A stretch of 64,000 nt of DNA from Mytilus edulis (lineage: Eukaryota): NCBI RefSeq assembly GCF_963676685.1, contig NC_092345.1:101680001-101744000 (forward strand), written 5' to 3'. Shown piece after piece: positions 33,001 through 57,000 of the stretch. Each line of letters opens with the position of its first letter. Position 1 is the stretch's first letter. The position numbers were made by a program, and so were the translations under genes. The notes beneath the pieces are model-generated. The model saw only the letters and a program-made list of their open reading frames with translations. It was not told the DNA's origin and searched no databases.

Positions 33001-36000
33001 TGGAGATGTAAAGTTAATTCCAACTTTAAGCATTCAGGATCAACAAAATTGCCTTCATAAATGCAAATTTACAATTTATATCTGTCCAGTTAGAAATGAT
33101 GGAAAGGAAAAAGTGCCAAATATGATGTAAATGAAATGACAATGGTCAAGGAATGAGACCACAGAAAAAGAAAGGTTTTTGTTCAGTGGAATAAAGCTAT
33201 CAAATAAATTATGAAATGATATTTGTAACGCATGAAGTTTGTCAAGAATGACTGATTTTAACTCTAAAACATTTGATATCACAGATGCAAACAGAATATC
33301 TCTGACAACAAGGACTTTTATCAACAGAACTATCCCTGTCTGCTATTTTTTGTCATAGCTTATGTTCTGCATATCAATCTCACCTTGCAAATTAACACTT
33401 CCCCCATTGGCCACTGATAGTTTATTTTCCTCATCAAATAAAGTATTGATGCTCTCTGTCCAAACAGGGTGCATAACTCCGTCTAATACAATCCACCGTA
33501 CTAACACTGAAGGGAGATCCTGTCCTTTATTTTTTTTGTCCTTTAAACCACTGATGTAATTTCTTACTGCATCAGATAGAAATGATGAGTCCTTTAGGAT
33601 CTTGGGAAATAGTCCACCCTGCCATATCCCATCAGAAAAGGCTCCAAGGAACTACAAGTAAAACATTAAAAACACAGCTAGTACAGAGCAATAATGTCTC
33701 AAATCTTCTCTAAATTCTTGGTCTAAATGGCTTCAAAATTTGAGATAAGGAATATAGTTTTTCCCCTTGTTATCTCTATGGCATGCCAATTGTTTTTTGT
33801 ATTTTTGTGTCATTCAATTAGCCTGGCTCATGAATATATTTTTGGTTAATTCAAACAAATGTACTGCATAAAATTTGCTAACTGAAAAAAATATCTTTTT
33901 ATTAATCAAATGAATGTTCTGTATTTATCATCTAAAACTAAATGATGAACAAGAAAATAAAATAAATATTTTTAACGTCCAACCGGAATGTGTTATTATA
34001 ACCGCCATCTTGTTTACATTGGAAAAAGAAAGTTGTTCAGACAACGTCATCCATCAAAAAAATAAAATAATGTCAACAGCTTTATTGAAAGCCCTCTTGA
34101 CCAATCATATAAATGTATTTCCTAATACTCAAATCATATAAGAATTATTTGTTCATGGATCTTTTTTTTCTTCAAATTAATCGTACAAAACAGTTAGGCT
34201 ATGGTTTTGAAGTTTAACTGGTTATTATCAAACAGTATCGATATTGTAACATACCTATCAGTGATTTGATATTGGTGAATGACAATGGCATGTCTTTTGA
34301 TATTGGTGAATGGCAATGGCATGTCTTTTGATATTGGTGAATGGCAATGGTATGTCTTTTGATATTGGTGAATGACAATGGTATGTCTTTTGATATTGGT
34401 GAATGGCACTGGCATGTCTTTTGATATTGGTGAATGGCAAAATTATGGTATGTCTTTTGATATTAGTGAATTGCAATGGTATGTCTTTTGATATTGGTGA
34501 ATGACAATGGTATGTCTTTTGATATTGGTGAATGACAATGGTATGTCTTTTGATATTGGTGAATTGCAATGGTATGTCTTTTGATATTGGTGAATAACAA
34601 TGGTATGTCTTTTGATATTGGTGAATTGCAATGGTATGTCTTTTGATATTGGTGAATGACAATGGTATGTCTTTTGATATTGGTGAATTGCAATGGTATG
34701 TCTTTTGATATTAGTGAAAGGCAATGGTATGTCTTTTGATATTGGTGAATGGCAATGGTATGTCTTTTGATATTGGTGAATGACAATGGTATGTTTTTTG
34801 ATATTTGTGAATTGCAATGGTATGTCTTTTGATATTGATGAATGACAATGGTGTGTCTTTTGATATTGGTGAATGACAATGGCATGTCTTTTGATATTGG
34901 TGAATGACAATGGTATGTCTTTTGATATTGGTGAATGGCAATGGTATGTCTTTTGATATTGGTGAAAGGCAATGGTATGTCTTTTGATATTAATGGATTA
35001 CAATGGTATGTCTTTTGATATTGGTGAATGACAATGGTATGTCTTTTGATATTGGTGAATTGCAATGGTATGTCTTTTGATATTAGTGAATGGCAATGGT
35101 ATGTCTTTTGATATTGGTGAATGGCAATGGTATGTCTTTTAATATTGGTGAATGACAATGGTATGTCTGTTGATATTGATGAATGGCAATGGTATATCTT
35201 TTGATATTGGTGAATGGTAATGGTATGTCTTTTGATATTGGTGAATGACAATGGTATGTCTTTTGATATTGGTGAATGACAATGGTATGTCTTTTGATAT
35301 TGGTGAATGGTAATGGTATGTCTTTTGATATTGGTGAATGACAATGGTTTGTCTTTTGATATTAGTGAATGGGAATGGTATGTCTTTTGATATTAGTGAA
35401 TGGCAATGGCATGTCTTTTGATATTGGTGAATGACAATGGTATGTCTTTTGATAGTAGTAAATGGCAATGGCATGTCTTTTGATATTGGTGAATGGCAAT
35501 GGCATGTCTTTTAATATTGGTGAATGGCAATGGTATGTCTTTTGATATTGGTGAATGGCAATGGCATGTCTTTTGATATTGGTGAATGGCAATGGCATGT
35601 CTTTTGATATTGGTGAATGGCAATGGTATGTCTTTTGGTATTGGTGAATGGCAATGGCATGTCTTTTGATATTAGTGAATGGGAATGGTATGTCTTTTGA
35701 TATTGGTGAATGACAATGGTATGTCTTTTGATATTGGTGAATGGCAAAATTATGGTATGTCTTTTGATATTGGTGAATGGGAATGGTATGTCTTTTGATA
35801 TTGGTGAATGACAATGGTATGTCTTTTGATATTAGTGAATGGGAATGGTATGTCTTTTGATATTGGTGAATGACAATGGTATGTCTTTTGATATTGATGA
35901 ATGACAATGGTATGTCTTTTGATATTGGTGAATGACAATGGTATGTCTTTTGATATTGGTGAATGACAATGGTATGTCTTTTGATATTGGTGAATGGCAA

Positions 36001-39000
36001 TGGCATGTTTTTTGATATTGGTGAATGGCAAAATTATGGTATGTCTTTTGATATTAGTGAATTGCAATGGTATGTCTTTTGATATTAGTGAATGACAATG
36101 GTATGTCTTTTGATATTGGTGAATGGCAATGGTATGTCTTTTGATATTGGTGAATGGCAATGGTATGTCTTTTGATATTAATGAATTGCAATGGTATGTC
36201 TTTTGATATTGGTGAATGACAATGGTATGTCTTTTGATATTGGTGAATTGCAATGGTATGTCTTTTGATATTAGTGAATGGCAATGGTATGTCTTTTGAT
36301 ATTGGTGAATGGCAATGGTATGTCTTTTGATATTGGTGAATGACAATGGTATGTCTGTTGATATTGATGAATGGCAATGGTATATCTTTTGATATTGGTG
36401 AATGGTAATGGTATGTCTTTTGATATTGGTGAATGGTAATGGTATGTCTTTTGATATTGGTGAATGACAATGGTTTGTCTTTTGATATTAGTGAATGGGA
36501 ATGGTATGTCTTTTGATATTAGTGAATGGCAATGGCATGTCTTTTGATATTGGTGAATGACAATGGTATGTCTTTTGATAGTAGTAAATGGCAATGGTAT
36601 GTCTTTTGATATTGGTGAATGGCAATGGCAAGTCTTTTGATATTGGTGAATGGCAATGGCATGTCTTTTGATATTGGTGAATGGCAATGGTATGTCTTTT
36701 GGTATTGGTGAATGGCAATGGCATGTCTTTTGATATTAGTGAATGGGAATGATATGTCTTTTGATATTGGTGAATGACAATGGTATGTCTTTTGATATTG
36801 GTGAATGGCAAAATTATGGTATGTCTTTTGATATTGGTGAATGGGAATGGTATGTCTTTTGATATTGGTGAATGACAATGGTATGTCTTTTGATATTAGT
36901 GAATGGGAATGGTATGTCTTTTGATATTGGTGAATGACAATGGTATGTCTTTTGATATTAGTGAATGGCAATGGCATGTCTTTTGATATTGGTGAATGAC
37001 AATGGCATGTCTTTTGATATTGGTGAATGGCAATGGTATGTCTTTTGATATTGGTGAATGGCAATGGCATGTCTTTTGATATTGGTGAATGGCAATGGCA
37101 TGTCTTTTGATATTGGTGAATGGCAATGGTATGTCTTTTGGTATTGGTGAATGGCAATGGCATGTCTTTTGATATTAGTGAATGTGAATGGTATGTCTTT
37201 TGATATTGGTGAATGACAATGGTATGTCTTTTGATATTGGTGAATGGCAAAATTATGGTATGTCTTTTGATATTGGTGAATGGGAATGGTATGTCTTTTG
37301 ATATTGGTGAATGACAATGGTATGTCTTTTGATATTAGTGAATGGGAATGGTATGTCTTTTGATATTGGTGAATGACAATGGTATGTCTTTTGATATTGA
37401 TGAATGACAATGGTATGTCTTTTGATATTGGTGAATGGCAATAGTATGTCTTTTGATATTGGTGAATGGCAATGGCATGTCTTTTGAAATTGGTGAATGG
37501 CAATGGCATGTCTTTTGATATTGGTGAATGGCAATGGTATGTCTTTTGGTATTGGTGAATGGCAATGGCATGTCTTTTGATATTAGTGAATGGGAATGGT
37601 ATGTCTTTTGATATTGGTGAATGACAATGGTATGTCTTTTGATATTGGTACATGGCAAAATTATGGTATGTCTTTTGATATTGGTGAATGGGAATGGTAT
37701 GTCTTTTGATATTGGTGAATGACAATGGTATGTCTTTTGATATTAGTGAATGGGAATGGTATGTCTTTTGATATTGGTGAATGACAATGGTATGTCTTTT
37801 GATATTGATGAATGACAATGGTATGTCTTTTGATATTGGTGAATGACAATGGTATGTCTTTTGATATTGGTGAATGACAATGGTATGTCTTTTGATATTG
37901 GTGAATGGCAATGGCATGTTTTTTGATATTGGTGAATGGCAAAATTATGGTATGTCTTTTGATATTAGTGAATTGCAATGGTATGTCTTTTGATATTAGT
38001 GAATGACAATGGTATGTCTTTTGATATTGGTGAATGACAATGGTATGTCTTTTGATATTGGTGAATTGCAATGGTATGTCTTTTGATATTGGTGAATGAC
38101 AATGGTATGTCTTTTGATATTGGTGAATTGCAATGGTATGTCTTTTGATATTAGTGAAAGGCAATGGTATGTCTTTTGATATTGGTGAATGACAATGGTA
38201 TGTCTTTTGATATTGGTGAATGGCAATGGTATGTCTTTTATATTGGTGAATGGCAATGGCATGTCTTTTGATATTGGTGAATGGCAATGGTATGTCTTTT
38301 GATATTGGTGAATGGCAATGGTATGTCTTTTGATATTGGTGAATGACAATGGCATGTCTTTTGATATTGATGAATGACAATGGTATGTCTTTTGATATTG
38401 GTGAATGACAATGGCATGTCTTTTGATATTGGTGAATGACAATGGTATGTCTTTTGATATTGGTGAATGGCAATGGTATGTCTTTTGATATTGGTGAATG
38501 GCAATGGTATGTCTTTTGATATTAATGAATTGCAATAGTATGTCTTTTGATATTGGTGAATGACAATGGTATGTCTTTTGATATTGGTGAATTGCAATGG
38601 TATGTCTTTTGATATTAGTGAATGGCAATGGTATGTCTTTTGATATTGGTGAATGGCAATGGTATGTCTTTTGATATTGGTGAATGACAATGGTATGTCT
38701 GTTGATATTGATGAATGGCAATGGTATATCTTTTGATATTGGTGAATGGTAATGGTATGTCTTTTGATATTGGTGAATGGTAATGGTATGTCTTTTGATA
38801 TTGGTGAATGACAATGGTTTGTCTTTTGATATTAGTGAATGGGAATGGTATGTCTTTTGATATTAGTGAATGGCAATGGCATGTCTTTTGATATTGGTGA
38901 ATGACAATGGTATGTCTTTTGATAGTAGTAAATGGCAATGGCATGTCTTTTGATATTGGTGAATGGCAATGGCATGTCTTTTGATATTGGTGAATGGCAA

Positions 39001-42000
39001 TGGTATGTCTTTTGATATTGGTGAATGGCAATGGCATGTCTTTTGATATTGGTGAATGGCAATGGCATGTCTTTTGATATTGGTGAATGGCAATGGTATG
39101 TCTTTTGGTATTGGTGAATGGCAATGGCATGTCTTTTGATATTAGTGAATGGGAATGGTATGTCTTTTGATATTGGTGAATGACAATGGTATGTCTTTTG
39201 ATATTGGTGAATGGCAAAATTATGGTATGTCTTTTGATATTGGTGAATGGGAATGGTATGTCTTTTGATATTGGTGAATGACAATGGTATGTCTTTTGAT
39301 ATTAGTGAATGGGAATGGTATGTCTTTTGATATTGGTGAATGACAATGGTATGTCTTTTGATATTGATGAATGACAATGGTATGTCTTTTGATATTGGTG
39401 AATGACAATGGTATGTCTTTTGATATTGGTGAATGACAATGGTATGTCTAACAACCAAGTAATGTTCTTACCTCCTGAGGGGAGACTGCAGTTGGATTCA
39501 AGGTAACAACATCAACTTTAGGATATTCTGCTACTTCCCTTATTTTATGAATTGCTAAATCTTGAATGGCCTCAGTCACTTTTCCTATGACATTTGTCAT
39601 CCTCTTTAACTTCCTGAAATTAGTCTTGTCTGCTTTGGGTTCCGGGGCTGATAAGGCTGACAGAAACTGCAGAAAATATCAATCATAAAATAAGTAGCTA
39701 GCAGACTTAAAATTTAGAGAGTTTACCTTCATTAAATTTACATTTTAAATTTATTTATGTAAAAAATGCCCCCAAATATTATGAAAAGGAAAGATGAAAT
39801 AGTACTAATTATTTTTCAGTCTTACATGCCAGAAAATTAATATGCATCCCTGAATTATATTTTTGATAAATATCAAACTAAACAAAAGATTTAAAAGATC
39901 CTTAAATTGCAGTAGACTTCCTCGGACACCTCTGAACTGACAGATGAAAATTTGTATTAGAAATGAAAAGCTTAAAAAACAATAAAGCAAAACCTAAGGC
40001 TATATTTTACCATGCAGATATAAGAATACAGTTCAACAGAAAGATCATTCAGAATAAAGATATACCAATACAATACACTAGAATGGAAACAGAATATAAA
40101 CAGCAACTAGTTAGAAAGAGAAAGTAAAAAGCATCTAGCCAGTAATTCTACAGCATGAAGCATCTGCATACAAATACAAAAAAGCTATAAAAAAACTGGT
40201 ATGGGCCAACCACATTTCAAACATTAGGTATTCTACAATTTCATGACATTTCCATATGCATTTTATTCAAAAATTTTGAAAATCTAAAAGGGTTTAGATT
40301 TTATTGTTTTGGGGCAATCTGAGACACTTTAACATAGTAATTTTCTTTTGTGCAGAAAAAAACCCAGGAATGCTTAAGATATTGAAATAAGAAAATGTTA
40401 AATGATTGCTAACTAAACCAACGTCACCAAAACACCAAAGGACACTTAGGACTACAGGTCACCTCACTGTCTTCAACAATCAGCTAAAGACCAAGCCCAT
40501 GTTGTAAGATATAAAAGGTACCGGGATGACAGTGGAACAATTCAAGTAATTTCAAATAATGGCAAAAAATGTCTACTACAATCATACATTGCCATAGATA
40601 TCAGGTTTAACTTTACAAGCAGAAGAAAAAAAAATTTACAACTTTTGAATTACAAATACTTTTTTTAATGCAGTTGCCACTTCTGGATTGTCTCCAGTTT
40701 AAATGTCAACAATTTTCAGCCACTCTCACTAATTAATAAGTATGAAATTAGAATGTAAGTTATATTGGGAAATTTATTTATCACTCTTTTTTTTGTGAGA
40801 TGCCTTCAACTAAACTTATCAAATGATTGGAAATACCATAATCATGGATGGAGCGAAAGACCTTGATAACTAAGAGGTAATGAAAATAAATACCAATCAA
40901 TCGCACAAATACTCTGGGATAAAAATTGTTAAAAAATAAAATCTGAATCAAAGAATATTTGGAATAACTATAGCTCAATGCAGACACTACCAAACAAGAT
41001 TTATTAGGAACATTGTTATAACAACAATTCAGCTAAAACAATTCTGAATTTATACTGTAAAGCTAAAAGAACAGATATTAAAGAGTTTATAATAGCTAGC
41101 AGCAAGCTACAACACACATTATAAAATTAGTATCAGAATTGATCACATGGTCAGTCATGTGACAACTTACTTCCTCATCAAGTTCACCAACTTTATCTAA
41201 GGTTTCCTGTTACATAGAAAATAACAGTCATTTTATTCAGTTGTTTAAGTATTAAATCCTAAATATACCTACAGTATTGCATCTTACATGCATGTTTATT
41301 TAAAGTAGTTTTTATTAAACTGTCATTTTACTAGCAACTAGAACATATGTACAGGACATGGGTTAAATCTGAAATATTGGTTTGTTATATATTGAGATAA
41401 TAAAAACAAAAAGATATCAAAGTCAAATTGGAGAACATTTTTCAATGTGTAAAAACTTAACAACTTTAAAATAACTATTATTAACTTCTACTACTACAAG
41501 CTTTGTGACATTAATTTGTAGTTATATGTAACTCTTGTGTCAGTGGAAAAAAATTCTTAAAGTGAGCATGTTTAATTAAGAGATTGACTCAACATATCAT
41601 ATCTAAACTAAAATGTTTTTATGAATAAAAAAAATGATTTTAGGATCCAACCAAAGACTAAGTAAATAAAAATATTCTGTTACTCTTCTTCATGTAGATA
41701 ATTATGTCATAACAAAAAAAAAACATCAACTCTCCTTTATGTATTGAAAGTATTTACAAAATTTGTCATCTTTAAAATCCTTAAATAAATTTAAATTTAT
41801 CAGTAGCATTGATTCTATAGACAGTAACACAGATATTAATATAAAGAATTCTAAGTATATCAATATGATTTTATGTTGGTCTGATATTACTATACTTTCA
41901 CCCCCCCCCTTTCCCCCCCCCCCCCCCCCCCCCCTTTTTTTCTTCTTCACAAATCACAAAGCAAAATCGGTGATAATGTTATAATGATATTATTCATGCT

Positions 42001-45000
42001 AGTGATCTGTGTAAATAGTTAATTTCATGCTATCGATGAAAACGAGTCTACTATATATGTACAAAAAGGTCACATGTCTATCATGTGACAACTTACTTCA
42101 TCACCCATTTCATCCTCACTACTGCCACTTTCATTTTCCTATACATTAAAAAGTTTGAAACAATGATCAAAAGTGAAATGAATCACCTGAAGAAATTGTC
42201 TCCTTACTATTAAACTCAAAATTAAACTTTAAAAATAAAAAATAAAACTTAACATTCACAAAAATGTTGCACTCCCTAAGCTTTAGCCTGAATGTCAAGA
42301 TAGGGTGTCAGATGTTGAGTAAAATAAATTTTGCTCCAGTATATATTGTTCTGCCATTAATGTTACCTGTTTTTTTATGTTATTTATAAAAAAATTGATC
42401 TTTTAGGGTTTCGTTTTTAATTATACACTGGATAAATGAGTATACAAGAAAACATTATATTTTTATATTTTGTTTAAGATGCTCACAAGTTTAGAAGTTT
42501 CTTATTTCCCTTATCTTTTTAATTCTTGTAGAATGTTTTACAAACCTTTAGCTTTTTCTTCTGATGGAAGATAAGGTCTCTGTCCGTAGCTAACTCATCT
42601 TTGGAATGATCTGGAGCAAACAGGAGATAATTGAGCCTGTTGATAGCTCTGGATAAGGTTTGAGTAGCTGTTGATTTACCACTACCAGATGGTCCAGAAA
42701 GGATAATACCCTTTCTCATCTCTATAGCAGAGTTCATATGTAACATCTGAAATATAGGTTTTATGGAAGAAATCTAGTACTATTTTTTCATGCAAATCCA
42801 ATTCATTAATTGTCATATAGAGTTCAAACTAACAAAAATGTATTGCTTATGAAAAATTTAAGCACTACAGTTTTCATTCACAAAATAGTCATCTGGAAAA
42901 TTTTTAGTAAATTGAGATTTGAGACATTTAAAAAATATCCATTGCAATTGAAAACTATATCATTGTATAAACAATATATTACTTACCCTAGCTATCATCT
43001 CTTTAGTAAGAACCATATTATCTTCCTTGAACTGTTCCTTCAGAGATTTGACCAGTTCATGGTTATAGACGTGTTCTGATGTTCCTCTTGAACTGGCACA
43101 CATTGGGAACGTATCTCTAAGATGGTTCATAAACACAGTTCTATCATCCTCGTCCTCCAGACTAGGAGATATGACAGCCTTCAGAGAGTATACCATGCAG
43201 TGCTCCTCTAATGATTTATCTACATCACGAGAGGAATCAGAGCTAGGAGTCTCACCAATCTCTCCTTCTGAAAAAGTCAAAAGCAACATAAAGAATTTAA
43301 AACATTATAAGATTTTATGGTAAAACCTGAAATTTAGCATAAAATGGAATGAATTATACAAATATAAACTTCGAATGTAAATACATTCTTTTGATTTTAA
43401 ACATTACACTTTCTCAACAGCAAGGTTAAGTGCAAATGGAAAGCAACAGTTGTTAAAAATCAACTAAGTTATTTAACAGACTGTACATACTATGGGTCAA
43501 CAATGTTTTTTCATACATGACTGAGGTCCTCAATTAAATTAAAACTGCTAAAATATGTGTGTACTCCTCTGGTCTGTAAACATTTCCAAATAAAAAAAAA
43601 ATGTTAATGCCCGCTGCACATATCATTCTCCATCTCATTTTATATTTTTTGACAAAATAACCATACCTCTGAGTTCTTCAATAAATCTTTCATCCCTCAG
43701 TTTTGCAGTAGCAACTTCTGCTAAGTTTTTGATGTCCTTTAATCCAAACTGATACTGGGTTTTTCTTGGAAGCTGCAATACACAACATTGACATTATGAA
43801 TACGATCAAAGGAGATGTTAGGTGTTCCAAAATTCAGACAGCAATGCAACAACAGAATTAACCCAAAAGACAAGAAGTTAATCAAGTTTTAAAGTCGTAC
43901 ATGAAAAATCAACATTTACAGCCGATTTCATTGAGTGTGTAGCCATAGGTAATATCTTTGGTTAGCTTGCTTGTTAGCTGAACCGTGAAGTCATTATAAA
44001 GTCAGGTATACTACCGTTCTTTTGAAGTAGCCTAGTCCAACAGACAGATAGATCAGTTATCTGCTGGACTAGTCCACTCTTAAAGGAGGGTAGTTTGCTT
44101 GACATAACAATGACTTCGCGGTTCAGCTAACAAGAAAGTTAACCAAAGATATTACCTATGGCTACACACTCAATGAAATTGGCTGTGAATGTTTAATAAG
44201 CATTGAGCTGTCAAATTGATAGGAACTGGGTTTTCTGTATTTTGATAGGCACTTTCTGGATCTTTTGACATGCCATATTTTATGCCTATTTTTCAGTCTA
44301 TCAAGAATCATAACTCCTGAAGGGCAAAAAGGTGAAATAGTCAATATCAAACTTGACCACCATTTTGTCATCAGTAACAGCATATTAAAATTTAAATAGT
44401 ATTGGCTGAAAGGTTCATTAGTAATTACACAGAAAATGTCATTTTCAATAAGATCAAGGACCATAACACTTGAGTCGTAATAGTGAAAATTATCAGTATT
44501 AAACTTGACCTCAATTTTGTAATCATAAACAAGCAATCATAATCTAAAAATCTTAGATAGCATGATTCATAAGTTGTTGAACGAATGGTTATAACATAAG
44601 AAAGTGCTAAGAAACCTATAAATATCTTAGAAAGCATGAAGGACTTTGTCTTGCATAATCATGTCAAGGAAGGCATTAGGGTATCTTTTTTGGAATAATT
44701 ATGCCTTACAAATTGTGTTCATTATGATATTTACCTGATTTTTTAACATCTTGAGTATAAATGTGATTTTTCTGGCCAGAGGTTTATATTCCTGGAAACC
44801 ATGACAACACAAAGTTGTTTCTGTTATCATGTAAAAGTCTGGTACTATAAGAGCACAAGGTCTCAACAGATTCTGTAATAGAAACAAACAAACATTAAAG
44901 AATATGTTATCAAGAAGTTAAAAGTGAGAGGAGTGTTTTATCGTACATGCCTCATTCCAAAACGCAACAGACAGTCTTCCTAAGAGATATAAGTTTCTAT

Positions 45001-48000
45001 ATTAAAATAATATATAATTGTGTAATTTTTTATGTATCCTACCTTAAATACTTCTGGTATATCCACATAAGCTGGATTGCTTGTATTTATGGACATAAAA
45101 CATGAAAAGTTAGCACTGGCTTGGATAAGCTTCCCATTGAACATGATGTTACCAAGCATCTGCTGCTCATATTCTGTTTCCTGGAGAAGCTTGCTATAAT
45201 CTGGTGCTGTTGACCTTTTGTTTTTACTTTTAACATGTTCTGAAATAAAGCAGGAGCAAATATAAGGTTAGTTATAAATAAGCAAACATATATATGTGAC
45301 TCAAACACCTGTTTTAACTTTAAAAAGAAAATGATTGAATTCTATAGTGTCAATACAGTTCAGAAGAAATGAAATTTTTGGTTTAGAATACTCCTTTTTA
45401 ATATACATGTATTTCTTCTGTTATGGAATTCTTTATTTTATTGTTTTTCAAAAAAATTTCCAAAATCATTTTCCAATGAGCAAACTTAAAGCCCATAGAA
45501 AAGGTAAAGTAAATTTAAAATTATTGTGAGGTTTTTATTAATGCAATGATGTGGCTGGAAGAGTATGGCAATATTAAGAACTCAGATTTTATATCTGATA
45601 CATATAGATATGTATGCTGCTTTTCCCCTAAATCACAATAAGATACCTCACATTTAGTCCATTCTTTGAAATTCCCAATAATAAATGCAAGTAATAATTT
45701 CGTTAAATGTTTAATTTTTTTTCCAATGTTGAAGTCCATTCAAAAGGTATAATGACTTAAGTATGAGTAGTAATAGAGCTAGCTACAAGAGTATTTAACT
45801 CAGCATATATTATTTTTAGGAGTGAAACATTTTGGTTATAGAAACAAAATAAAACAAAACTAAACAATAAAGACATATCAATGAAACAACTTACAGACAT
45901 GAATGCCACATAAGATAAAGTCAATGAAACAGCAATTAGTAAACAAAATGGACATTTACAGCTGGTCGATTGTTATTATATATTCTGTGCAGTTTTTAGA
46001 TGTGCATCAATAAAAACAAAAGTGAAGGAAACAATAAGGTTATGGTAATTCAGGGTTGGTTCTTACCTAATATTTCATCTAGAAATAAATATAACTTCTT
46101 GTCAATCAAATCCCAAACACAATATGGATACAAATGTGTTTGAAAAAATCGTAATATGAAATTTCACTGGATTATAATCCATACACAGTAAAATAAAACT
46201 CTTCTTGGTATAGGTAGTGTATATATTTAGCCATACCTGTCAACCTCTGAAAATGAAAAGTCAGGTCATGACCTGCATTGAGAAAAAAAATCTCAGGTCA
46301 TAACGCGTACGACATTTTGCGGGCTCAATTGAAGAACAAAAATATGTTTACATATAATTTATATAGTCAATATGTATATGAAACAGTAAGAACATGTATA
46401 CAAGTTTATTTCAGACTATTGTTATATTCCATAGTAGCAGACTTGGCATTCTTTAAAAGAACTGCACTTGGTTTCAGTTCATAGCAATGCAAATGTGTAT
46501 TCATTTTACAAGAAAGAAGAGCACACAGTGTATCCTTATTAAGATCAGCCCTAAACTCTGTAGCTATTTTCTTTACTAAAGAAAATGCCCTCTCACTGTC
46601 TGCATTGCTGTTTGGCAAAACCAGTAATGTTTTAGCAAGTTTTGACAAAACAAAAAATCTTGGCTTGTTAAGAAAAATGTCATGCAACTTGGACATTTCT
46701 CCCCAAAATGTACCAATGTCAGTTTCAGGGGAAGTGCAAAGTGGAAGTTCATCTAATGGGGTCAACTGATAGTCACTGAACTCATCTTGTAGCTGTGTTG
46801 TCTCTTCATATCGTTACGTAGCTCAGGTAAACAGTCCTACATTTTGACTTTTGGTTACATTGAAAAAGACCGATAAAACCGAAGGTCGTATTACTTCTAA
46901 ATACCGGAAACAATTCGGTAAGAAATCCGGGTGAAACGGGTAATGTTAGAAATTCCCGGGACCCGCCGGGTAAAGAAAAACTCCCGGGTGAGAGGTGAAA
47001 ATAACGGGTGTCACCCGCAAAAAACGGGTGAGTTGACAGGTATGATTTAGCTTTAAGGTGGTACCTAACACTACAGGGAGATAACTCTGTAAAATCAGCT
47101 AAACGTTTTAATTACGTTGTGTTGTAAAGGGAATATTAAGCATCCCAATGATCAAAATTAGTGTTTGTCAAACTGCTATGTAACCAGTGTAATTTTTCAG
47201 ATAAATTGGTTGGTTCAAATGTTTCTAAATTTTTATATTTTTGTCGAAAAGTCATAGTAAATACTTTGAAAAAAAATTTAAATGAGCCAAATTAATTTAA
47301 GTTAAGGTATTGGTACCACCTTAAATAAAGGAAACCAAATATCTTGCTTGATAGCTAATATTCCAAATAATCCATTTGCTATGATAGGTCCAGAGCTAGT
47401 AGTTCAGAAATTCTACAAATCCTAAACTGATGACAGCATCTCTTTTGATAATATACATTTACGTGGAAGTAAAACAAAACACTGTTGATGGCTAAAACTT
47501 TCCTACCAAACAATATTTGGTTACATGCCCACAATTTTTGCAAAAATTCCCTTTAATCAATAATAGACTTTCAAGATATAAATTAGTATTATACCATAGA
47601 ACAATGGTGGTGGTCTGTTATTCTTGTATAAATCTGATTCTTTGATCTCTATTTCTTTCTCTATTGAATGTCTTCTTCTTCTGTCTTTCTCTGAAACCCA
47701 GGCATCTTCAAAGTATGTCACAAGACCTTTCTCCTGTGGAAAATAAAATCTAAACATTAAACGACAAATACTATATAGATGATTGTTTTATATTTCTGTA
47801 AGATACATTTGTAAGAAATATGTTCATCAGACAACATACATGAAAAACTTAAATGGCACATACTAAGCATAAAATAAAACTCATGCTAACCTCAATCTAA
47901 TTGATTTAAAAAGTGAGTTTATGTTAAAAGACTGTTGTGGTAAACATGAAGTTTAACCAAAGTCATTCAGGCATGTGTTGTACTTTATATCTTAAACATG

Positions 48001-54000: not shown

Positions 54001-57000
54001 AAATAACATTTTTATAGAAGTGGAGTTCATATCATCATGACATTGTGAAGTTACATTAGAATAACAATTTCATAAACTACCCCAACCAGGACAGTATTCA
54101 TCTTATTATAACACACAAAGTTACATTTAAACAATAATTGAAAACCCTGGTAATATCATATAAATATTTCAAAACAGTATAAATATCATAAATTTACCAA
54201 TTTTAATCATTTTCTGTTAATAGTATAAAAAAAGCAAATATAATAGTTTGCAATAATAACAGAATTAATTTATCATTTAGTGATTTTAGACTTTGTCAAA
54301 TGAAACTATGAAATTTATACATCTATCTTTAATCTCTTTTGAACAATACAAGTAAAGTACATTTAAACAAAAGCAATCTTTATTACTTTTAATTCTAGGA
54401 TGCTTCTATTAAAAATATTAAATGATTTTATGCATTACCTTAAAAATTTCATTTCCTCAATGTCTGCCTTCTCAAAACATTTAGAAACTGATCTTGCCCA
54501 GAGGATAGCTTCAGACACAAGGACACACTGAACAGGGAAACGTAACAGCCAGTGACGGAAGGTCTGTTTAATGTCTGTGGTTATCTCATGTTCTCTAGGA
54601 GTTAATGGTTTATTTAACTTGGCTAACTCCTCTAATAGATGTATTGGCTGTCGAGATCCTGTAGACAATCAGACATTGTGTCAACCTTCATTTTATGTTT
54701 TTCTATTCATTGTAATTTGAGTACATGAACATTTTATTTATATTACTTAATGACTCAGTCTAGATTTGCACAATAAGAAATGTCTGTTTTGGGACATTTT
54801 TTCTCTCTTTCTCATTTACTGAAATATAAGCCTAACTTCTCTGTAAGGTAAAATTTCTAATTCTGGAAAAAAAGTTATACAAAAGGAAATCTTTTGTACT
54901 GGAGACCTTGTCATGATTTTGATGAAACTAATTCCTCTACCATTTTTTTCTTAGTAATTTGTAATTTTGTCATATCATATGTTTTCCTTTTCATTTGCCA
55001 GATTTTATGAGGTGTATCTTGAGCAAAGTATTTCAAATGATATTTACTGGGTTTTTTTTAATGTCTAATCAGGTAAATTCCCTTTACAATAAACAATTTA
55101 ACCCTTGGTCTGATATCTACAGAAAAAAATATATGGAATGGGTTACACAAAAAGTTTTAATTTTACTAGAAGTTAACCATACTGATCCTGGCATAAAAAC
55201 CTCCATTTTGGTTTCTATATAAAATGACATATTTTATAACAATCATTTTTAATACCTTCTTCCATCCTGGCTTGTACACAGCATTGAAGGATAACGGTCA
55301 TGGTATTCTTCATGTTCTGTTCCAGACATTTAAGCCATTTGGTTGCCTTCTGATGTGCCTGTACTCTGACAAAGAATGGTACATCTTCTTCCAATAATCC
55401 CTTCATTCCAGTTAACTCCAATTTGTCAGCTGAAATGATAATAAAACAACTTTTGAAATGTGAAATCCCAATTAATATTAAATTAAAATGATTTTAACTG
55501 TATCTAAATAATCACAATTATCTTTTGACTCTTGTCTTATGTGACTTATATCATCTTACCTACTTTGTCTCATGTGACTTATATAATCTTACCTACTGTG
55601 TCTTATGTGACTTATATCATCTTACCTACTGTGTCTTATGTGACTTATATCATCTTACCTACTGTGTCTTATGTGACTTGTATCATCTTACCTACTGCAG
55701 GGCTTCCAAAAAACATTTGAGCCAGCCGGACATTTTATATTGGATCCCGATTTTAATCCCTTAAGACTAAGTCACAAAAGGCAATTATGGTAATCAGATG
55801 GCCATTCCAATGATAATGACATTAGATTAAAAAACGATTTTAAACTTTACTTTGTTTTGGATGTTTGGATGTAAACTGTTAAATTGGTAGTGTATCATTC
55901 AAAGTGTGCACATCAGCGTGCTCATATCTGCCATAGACTCTTTATTTGTGCAAAATGACATGACAATGGTAAAACATGGACCGTAAACGGATACGTAAAA
56001 TCCGTGTACGTTTGCAAAGCATGACTGAGTGAAGAAGCTCTTTCCACGTTATTTCTTCAACAAAATGCTTGAAATGAACGTTAAGATACAGGTATCAATG
56101 ATAATTTTAGCATTTTGAAGAAATAAAGGATGCATAATTATCATTTCCCACCTTTGCACATGCGCACACGTGTTCTAGTTCATTCGACGTAGTTCTGACG
56201 ATTTTTCATTTAAACCTTTTAAATTTTTTTATCAAATCATGTAGATAAACTAATTTCTTATAATTTTAATCTTTTGGACTAAATCAATGAGCTACAAACC
56301 GCTGAAATGTAAGAAAATAATTGTGAATAGACCAATCAATTTATACGATGTCCGGTACTGAACATAGTTTACCTGTCAACTGAACAGGTAGATATCACCT
56401 GTCCAACAACTAATTAGCCTTGATTAAAATTAGAAAGTATTGAAGTAGAGGTTGTTTTGATAGTAATTAATCATCATGTCACTTTTATGACCGGAAATGT
56501 GTAGATGTTAAAGGCAAAAGGTTGGGTCAAAAAGATCTTGACTTATGTTAAAATGACCGAAAAAGCCTTGAAAACTAAAATGTATATGACCGTTTCATGC
56601 TTTGCCCAGCCGGACTTTTACCGGACATTAATCAAATGTCCAGAATATATAACCGTTTTGGAAGCCCTGACCTACTGTGTCTCATGTGACTTATATCATC
56701 TTACCTACTCGGCTACTGAACTGAAATATATTGTTAATTATTTGATAATTTGTACCTGTTATATAATAAACATTCCTAAATACAAAACTTATTTAGACAA
56801 ACAATCTTTACCATTTAATGCAAAATCCAAATTAGTATTCATGCTTGCTATGCCAGAGGGTAATGCATAACTAAGATCTTGTATTCCAGGGAAAACTTTC
56901 ATAGCACAGTCCTGCAAAGCTTTAGGGTTTCTAGATATACCCAGAACCTCCACTAGTTCTTCATTGCTGATGAAATATAGACGTGGGAACTCCATACGAG

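Follow-up and report, generated by a model that had tools for sequence, protein, structure and literature searches.

CTCF bound behind CD45 exon 5 is said to act as a roadblock, a DNA-bound factor just past a weak exon that promotes its inclusion via polymerase pausing. Several other systems combine short alternative exons or intronic positions with RNA hairpins or with paired DNA words. Tandem exons governed by competing RNA structures, treated by Ivanov and Pervouchine (2018) in docker-selector and bidirectional models, are of similar size, seem to be duplicated together with a stem-loop-bearing intron flank, and have one arm duplicated against a shared docker (PMC6071210). MAPT exon 10, which is alternative, has a donor-adjacent stem-loop where the exon meets its intron, and slower polymerase favours weak exons (PMC9198270). 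On the DNA side, TCACATGA or TCATGTGA is the Mitf-bound dCLEAR (M-box) word of insect V-ATPase genes (PMC10452791), MITF alone favours TCAC half-sites while TWIST favours E-boxes 5 bp apart (bioRxiv 10.64898/2026.02.10.705010), and tandem E-box tetramers have been reviewed (PMC8431614). We compared with them a 64-kb stretch of the Mytilus edulis genome (contig NC_092345.1; this whole stretch of DNA is called the window), in which two small exons of a dynein heavy chain gene, the candidate microexon ME1 and the cassette microexon ME2, are each followed by paired E-box words that are predicted to fold into a hairpin. We tentatively interpret the locus as a duplicated small exon whose paired-word element is read locally and is probably a site on DNA, and give this reading a probability of roughly one in three (about 0.35). 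The features concerned are the following.

42138-42097, minus strand: ME1, candidate microexon of 42 nt, phase 0, tag/ENESGSSEDEMGDE/gtaagt; seen in the sequence, no spliced joint in 4/4 runs
41206-41171, minus strand: ME2, cassette microexon of 36 nt, phase 0, cag/ETLDKVGELDEE/gtaagt; included in runs X15, X16 and X18, skipped in X17
42099-42081, minus strand: 19 bases across donor 1, identical to 41173-41155
41173-41155, minus strand: 19 bases across donor 2, identical to 42099-42081
42069-42089, minus strand: element 1, G-TCACATG-ATAGA-CATGTGA-C, two E-box words separated by 5 bp, with an 8-bp hairpin predicted to start at +8
41136-41168, minus strand: element 2, with TCACATG-ACTGAC-CATGTGA as its core (41162-41143) and a distance of 6 bp between the E-box words

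Factor and motif at CD45 differ from those of the mussel element, where pausing is only proposed. Like the competing-structure exons (PMC6071210), ME1 and ME2 are two similar-sized exons that appear to be duplicated with a stem-loop-bearing flank. In the mussel, however, the whole hairpin was copied and there is no shared docker, cross-pairing is predicted at 0.4%, both exons are skipped in one run and ME1 was not seen spliced. The likeness to MAPT exon 10 (PMC9198270) lies in the position of the hairpin. In donor masking of that type the stem covers the U1 site and inclusion is lowered; in the mussel a stem over the donor (+3 to +8) is predicted at the included ME2 while ME1, not seen in use, has its donor free in the prediction, and the mussel motif belongs to a sequence-fixed genome-wide family. 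With the dCLEAR sites (PMC10452791) the elements share the exact 8-mer TCACATGA and an intronic position, but the mussel words are paired at a fixed period and stand directly behind donors of unrelated genes. Moreover, dCLEAR sites lie near the starts or in first introns of lysosomal genes, whereas the mussel element is mid-gene in a dynein, has 3' words with one mismatch, and is a putative binding site. The arrangement CANNTG-N5-CANNTG of the TWIST tetramer (bioRxiv 10.64898/2026.02.10.705010; PMC8431614) recurs at ME1 and at most unique sites. In contrast to the TWIST site, the mussel TCAC flanks are of the MITF type and disfavoured by other bHLH factors (bioRxiv 10.64898/2026.02.10.705010), and the spacer at ME2 measures 6 bp; the cited passages on double E-boxes contain no tie to splice donors that we could find.

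An initial annotation of this DNA had proposed two phase-0 exons of 42 and 36 nt with a common donor and a stem behind each, and all of these were found in place. Both copies run through the same order, namely 19 identical bases (GAA/GTAAGTTGTCACATGA), then TAGA or CTGAC, then CATGTGA, so that 19/19 bases across the donors and 7/7 bases of the second arm agree. The paired pattern matched twice in the window as compared with 0/100 shuffles. Changes between the copies are confined to the spacer, as that annotation had stated (0/17 versus 3/5 columns, post hoc p 0.006), which suggests selection. The coding divergence it had also described holds for the exons as wholes, whose local alignment is not significant (82/200 shuffles as good), but not for their 3' ends, where 12/16 of the last bases agree (p 0.013); end-anchored exon identity is 20/36 (p 0.017). 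Across the first 35 intron bases the alignment of the two units beats 200/200 shuffles, and the two acceptors resemble one another. The intron bodies align no better than chance (151/200 and 127/200 shuffles as good). Judged from these sequences, the units likely arose by tandem duplication of one acidic microexon together with its donor, and because the intron bodies can no longer be aligned the duplication is likely old. We also considered a splice-donor variable number tandem repeat, in which exon end and donor recur head to tail and the first donor is used, and rejected it: the copies lie 926 bp apart, each has its own acceptor, and the second is used.

Splicing was read from contigs of four runs (X15-X18, from three studies, contig depth 4.7-7.1), which were presumed to be RNA and in which GT-AG joints were seen; parts of the window without RNA cover were excluded from the evidence. 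In X15, X16 and X18 the upstream exon was joined to ME2 and ME2 to the downstream exon (joints 42545/41205 and 41171/39666). X17 joined the upstream directly to the downstream exon (42546/39666) and skipped both microexons. Since it is included in three runs and skipped in the fourth, ME2 is a cassette exon, and its alternative use, as suggested earlier, is real. ME1 was spliced in 0/4 runs and was covered solely by unspliced contigs, in X15 and X18; as contigs of depth 5-7 drop rare forms, its use may be rare or limited to unsampled tissues. These unspliced contigs differ at 1/388 bases over ME1, where contigs from other introns would lead one to expect ~4.6 differences (weak, p 0.057). For the intron sequence just before ME1 (42149-42200, minus strand), the long fold predicts pairing with the exon and its donor at 0.5-0.9. 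This pairing is a possible reason for the skipping of ME1, long-range predictions being unreliable.

As tandemly duplicated exons, ME1 and ME2 share a property of the mutually exclusive class, but one and only one of them per transcript is not what the runs display: ME2 alone was used in 3/4, neither in 1/4, and ME1 in 0/4. Neural microexons of the SRRM3/4 type are described as 3-27 nt long, which 42 and 36 nt exceed. A wider length limit of ~51 nt is also in use. Such microexons carry UGC shortly before their acceptor, and UGC was absent from the 60 nt that precede ME1 and ME2.

Across the genome of 1.37 Gb, TCACATG-N4-7-CATGTGA matched 170 sites, with an uninformative reversed-pattern control (319 sites). 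Of 20 hairpin-pattern sites that were fetched, 7 were one dispersed repeat and 3 one minisatellite. The spacer was 5 nt long in 11/22 unique sites (p 0.012; counted by hand among the first 50 listed of the 170, repeats and ME1/ME2 excluded). The strict consensus RTCACATGRYNRYCATGTGAY (RTCACATGRY-N-RYCATGTGAY) occurred at 34 sites, its reversed control at 0. Within 20 bases behind GTAAG we counted 18 sites, as opposed to 2 behind the mirror word CTTAC. Apart from ME1 and ME2, the other 16 represent 9 independent loci, 6 of which have exon evidence with the element within 25 nt behind the donor; the remaining 3 are repeats or come without exon evidence. At the donor density of the window, chance would place at most ~1 of 65 sites (the estimated number of non-repeat sites) in this position.

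The first of the six is a 33-nt acidic exon of CLASP (L084:4954-4986, plus strand; element at +10), included or skipped among annotated Mytilus isoforms and with alternative homologues in the annotations of scallops and gastropods. In an RRM gene, an exon of 60 nt that preserves the frame (L091:5037-5096, minus strand; +18) was spliced in 4/4 runs. The others are a glycerol-3-phosphate dehydrogenase (GPD) exon identified by Pfam (+9), an Ephrin_rec_like exon likewise identified (+25), an open exon in a Med12 gene (+6) and, in a multigene family, an exon of 177 nt that is conserved (+23). The RRM gene, which gave no Pfam hit, is presumably Musashi-like, to judge by a motif. At its 60-nt exon, X17, the run that skips dynein ME2, has a contig depth of 3.6 versus 53-84, a weak tissue hint given that depth is a poor measure. 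Four further short-exon candidates, defined by the nearest acceptor, are unverified and were not counted (L085, 24 nt; L080, 27 nt; L079, 41 nt; L078, 25 nt). In an ankyrin-repeat gene 2 Mb away (L085 near 4956, minus strand), an exact but reversed copy of the element 1 19-mer lies 36 bases behind the 24-nt candidate.

Looser patterns run into repeats. These dominate the counts of single words behind GTAAG (3028 and 2287, with 1568 and 1467 in the controls), and TCACATG twice behind GTAAG is one dispersed repeat in 97 of the first 100 matches listed (of 180). A 15-base donor word had 13 genome matches, of which 2 are ME1 and ME2 and 7 lie in one tandem array; none of its matches elsewhere has the same hairpin.

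We next consider whether the element is read as sequence or as RNA shape. Over 14 independent sites the consensus is R-TCACATG-RYNRY-CATGTGA-Y. Its flank letters fit RTCACATGRY in 76/84 cases, and by this 10-base consensus each half is a near-palindromic 10-mer. At positions 2 and 4 of the spacer, where a loop of five bases leaves no room for pairing, 25/28 letters conform, compared with just 56-63% at such positions in single words. Exon-like donors are also followed by direct repeats that keep the 11-bp period of the element. Two copies of TCATGTGA permit G.U pairing, and upstream of one such repeat lies an EGF exon by Pfam, while two copies of TCACATGA make pairing impossible, the exons in front of them being judged by eye. 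The outward class comprises 236 sites, nearly all of one minisatellite among the 50 listed, and none stood behind GTAAG in the degenerate-pair scan. In both dynein elements the 5' word is the exact 8-mer TCACATGA, a dCLEAR/M-box word, and the two E-boxes lie exactly 5 bp apart at ME1 and 6 bp at ME2. The 5-nt spacer, the conserved unpairable positions and the direct repeats favour CLEAR/M-box-type words read as sequence, likely in DNA. A pure hairpin agrees less well with the genome-wide pattern than do paired E-box/M-box sites, which the initial annotation had offered as its alternative. The carbohydrate response element (ChoRE) was considered for its geometry and set aside.

According to the reading we prefer, each exon copy would keep one member of the genome-wide paired-word element, read locally as sequence. 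A pair of MiT/USF-type bHLH-ZIP dimers would occupy the DNA words behind the donor and slow RNA polymerase just past it, which would favour inclusion of the short exon. The residues added by ME2 would tune a surface charge patch, not the catalytic site.

A number of results weigh against this proposal. The element is not sufficient by itself, since identical copies of it go with opposite outcomes at the two exons. The 3' words ACATGTGA and CCATGTGA are each one base off the 8-mer, and a spacer of 6 instead of 5 at ME2 is tolerated more easily by a hairpin than by a rigid protein pair. dCLEAR sites are found mostly near transcription starts while the ME1 and ME2 elements are mid-gene, and the 60-nt RRM-gene exon was never skipped in 4 runs. 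An out-of-sample check on 15 unseen strict sites, 5 of them copies of one dispersed repeat, failed, with 0/10 new unique sites having an evident donor within the preceding 30 nt. For the degenerate pair pattern there were 35 raw matches behind GTAAG versus 29 behind CTTAC, the control being mostly one minisatellite and matches at gap 0 being helped by the donor's own GT. Single words are only 1.45-fold commoner near AG/GTAAGT than further off (470 versus 324; controls 346 and 309). A metagenome scan with exon alignment for orthologous introns returned 9 loci, none an orthologue; they are short P-loop matches of 41-68% over 22-34 residues. Finally, 11/11 gene loci allow the outer pair on their sense strand (G.U at 6, A.C at 0), a weak hint at RNA, and palindrome-prone words and donor-spanning repeats are common, which may mean a mutational origin. 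The two alternatives that these last points touch, a local RNA element and a neutral palindrome relic, are close rivals of the paired DNA site.

The likelier of them, itself doubtful, is a local RNA stem-loop or a site for an RNA-binding protein behind each donor that regulates its own exon and not the neighbour. Intronic splicing elements typically lie at +6 to +25. Minimum-energy folds of 46-base neighbourhoods are the hairpins themselves (-10.4 kcal/mol for element 1, -12.3 kcal/mol for element 2), and in a 1.1-kb ensemble the ME2 hairpin is predicted at 0.995. For ME1 the same ensemble gives 0.10-0.15, and a span limit of 150 gives 0.93-0.99 for 5/7 pairs. The arms are untouched by the differences between the copies, among which are an indel in the spacer and a G-C pair that has become G.U, and the outer pair is formable throughout the sense-oriented gene loci, as stated above. 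In addition, two of the ten new out-of-sample sites lie shortly past a stop codon, by eye in 3' UTRs. Fold strength is nevertheless unexceptional, as 12/200 and 14/200 shuffles were as stable (z -1.7 and -1.5). Against an RNA element also stand the conserved unpairable spacer positions and an inner pair that is A.C in 4/11 gene loci; four paralogues of the multigene family have A.C at the outer pair. Behind donors, non-pairing direct repeats are about as frequent as wobble-pairing ones (5 versus 4 loci, by eye), and the stem of element 2, which reaches over donor positions +3 to +8, is predicted at the very exon that is included. YCAY is no commoner on the sense strand, where a NOVA-type excess was looked for, and the single Rfam match, mir-8315, scored at chance level (21.6 bits; cut-off 80).

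Next in likelihood, and unlikely in our judgement, is a neutral relic: a near-palindromic 10-mer prone to short duplications, direct or inverted, a donor segment copied or homogenised once, ME1 as a dead pseudo-exon and an inert element. ME1 did not appear spliced in any run, the 11-bp period recurs in a minisatellite and in dispersed repeats, and several of the new sites are perfect or near-perfect 21-bp palindromes. Decay by transitions would also yield the R/Y conservation, donor-spanning tandem repeats are common in the genome (L007, L037-L039, L065, L071), and 0/10 of the new out-of-sample sites lay behind donors. Against this history, ME1 retains an open, frame-preserving reading and both splice sites, identity is 17/17 in the words and at chance level right after them, and six other exon-backed donors carry the element where at most ~1 is expected. 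The low number of differences in the unspliced ME1 contigs points the same way, weakly.

Improbable is a role of the paired E-boxes as DNA enhancer sites whose proximity to donors is unrelated to splicing. It draws on the same motif evidence as our preferred reading, some sites have no exon nearby, and in repeats sites stand beside words that we take to be CCAAT- and ETS-like. It leaves unexplained both the excess within 25 nt of donors and the same offset in the two exon copies.

Very improbable, finally, is the competing pairing put forward in the initial annotation, in which the 5' arm that follows ME1 forms a duplex with the 3' arm that follows ME2, so that ME2 is looped out and the exons become mutually exclusive: ME1 and ME2 never occurred together (0/4 runs), competing structures can arise by tandem duplication (PMC6071210), and the cross duplex, because the arms are identical, is equally stable in isolation (-11.8 kcal/mol), but in the ensemble the cross helix reaches 0.004 next to 0.995 for ME2's own hairpin and is 3.6 kcal/mol worse than the two local hairpins together, which would fold first during transcription; each copy has its own partner arm in place of the one arm duplicated against a shared docker in the published scheme; and the predicted isoform (ME1 without ME2) was seen in 0/4 runs, the opposite one (ME2 without ME1) in 3/4 and neither exon in 1/4.

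An extended version of the DNA-site reading is quite unlikely as a whole. It would have a mussel donor-proximal tandem CLEAR/M-box, RTCACATGRY-N-RYCATGTGAY, bound by a bHLH-ZIP dimer pair as a polymerase roadblock, a tissue-dependent switch for short alternative exons such as those of dynein AAA2 and CLASP. A MiT/USF factor would be tied to a microexon programme, and the dynein twins would be duplicated switches setting the charge of the AAA2 loop for different cilia or sperm.

The window holds one dynein heavy chain gene, on the minus strand, and the feature noted at its two small exons, like the cassette exon, is real. That the DNA comes from a mussel agrees with the run labels, which point to a mollusc, and with an exon elsewhere in the genome that is 100% identical to Mytilus edulis and M. 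galloprovincialis proteins. Pfam DHC_N2, AAA_6, AAA_7 and MT matched on separate exons, and 45 segments are co-linear with the snail protein P0026, to which axonemal dyneins of the DNAH6 type come closest among solved structures. The gene may be DNHD1-like. ME1 and ME2 lie in an insertion behind the second P-loop (AAA2 Walker A helix), between two exons.

42546-42746, minus strand: upstream exon, 201 nt, AAA2 Walker A GPSGSGKST; Pfam AAA_5 E 1.4e-5, RNA-contig joints, 45% identity to snail P0026
39472-39666, minus strand: downstream exon, 195 nt, closes the AAA2 insertion (PKVDVVTLNP); spliced joints in 4/4 runs

From Walker A to the next strand there are 105 residues without ME2 and 117 with it; the snail model has 71 at this place, and a different dynein has 29. 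ME2 thus contributes 12 residues, acidic in character, to a lineage-specific insertion. Searches covering proteins up to 2000 residues found ME1 or ME2 in 0/7 matches, a protein search with the downstream exon gave 0 matches, and both microexons were absent from the 11 inspected of 45 protein representatives.

The window holds other features. A 31-bp satellite of ~5 kb (window 34200-39470) occupies most of the intron behind the downstream exon, beginning ~20 bases past its donor. An inverted repeat of 134 bp, 86% complementary, lies in the intron three exons upstream (43911-44193), and an intronic open frame of 135 residues at 46409-46813 (minus strand) resembles the C-terminal part of a hAT transposase. 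At 55530-55700 and 56670-56710, a 33-bp unit with AG-GTAAG plus TCACATGA (or TCACATAA) forms a short array and recurs ~1 kb away; both stretches flank an apparent inserted element.

Related words were also observed in repeats and at gene ends elsewhere in the genome. One dispersed family (L018-L024, L102, L103, L106-L108) has the strict paired element beside a CCAAT-like word, and a second, of ~170 copies, has GTAAG and two direct TCACATG words. A widespread minisatellite (L027, L028, L030 and others) consists of TCAYRTGA words at an 11-bp period with CG, CA and TG centres, and splice-donor repeats (L007, L037-L039, L053-L054, L065, L071) have tandem units spanning exon end, donor and TCACATG words. 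Strict elements stand shortly past the stop codons of exon-like frames at L099 near 3001 (plus strand) and L101 near 3001 (minus strand). The latter gene resembles Su(H)/RBPJ by its motif.

A search of literature listings found no description of the paired-word element or of intronic splicing motifs in molluscs or Mytilus. Because the word is nearly palindromic, the locus offers a clean test of DNA against RNA, in which the sites are kept and the hairpin is destroyed, or the reverse. Should the element be neutral, the locus would be an ordinary duplicated small exon. If functional, the element would provide a short, mutable, genome-wide handle on the regulation of short exons in molluscs. A cassette that adds six acidic residues by the AAA2 P-loop of an axonemal-type dynein suggests motors that are tuned by tissue.

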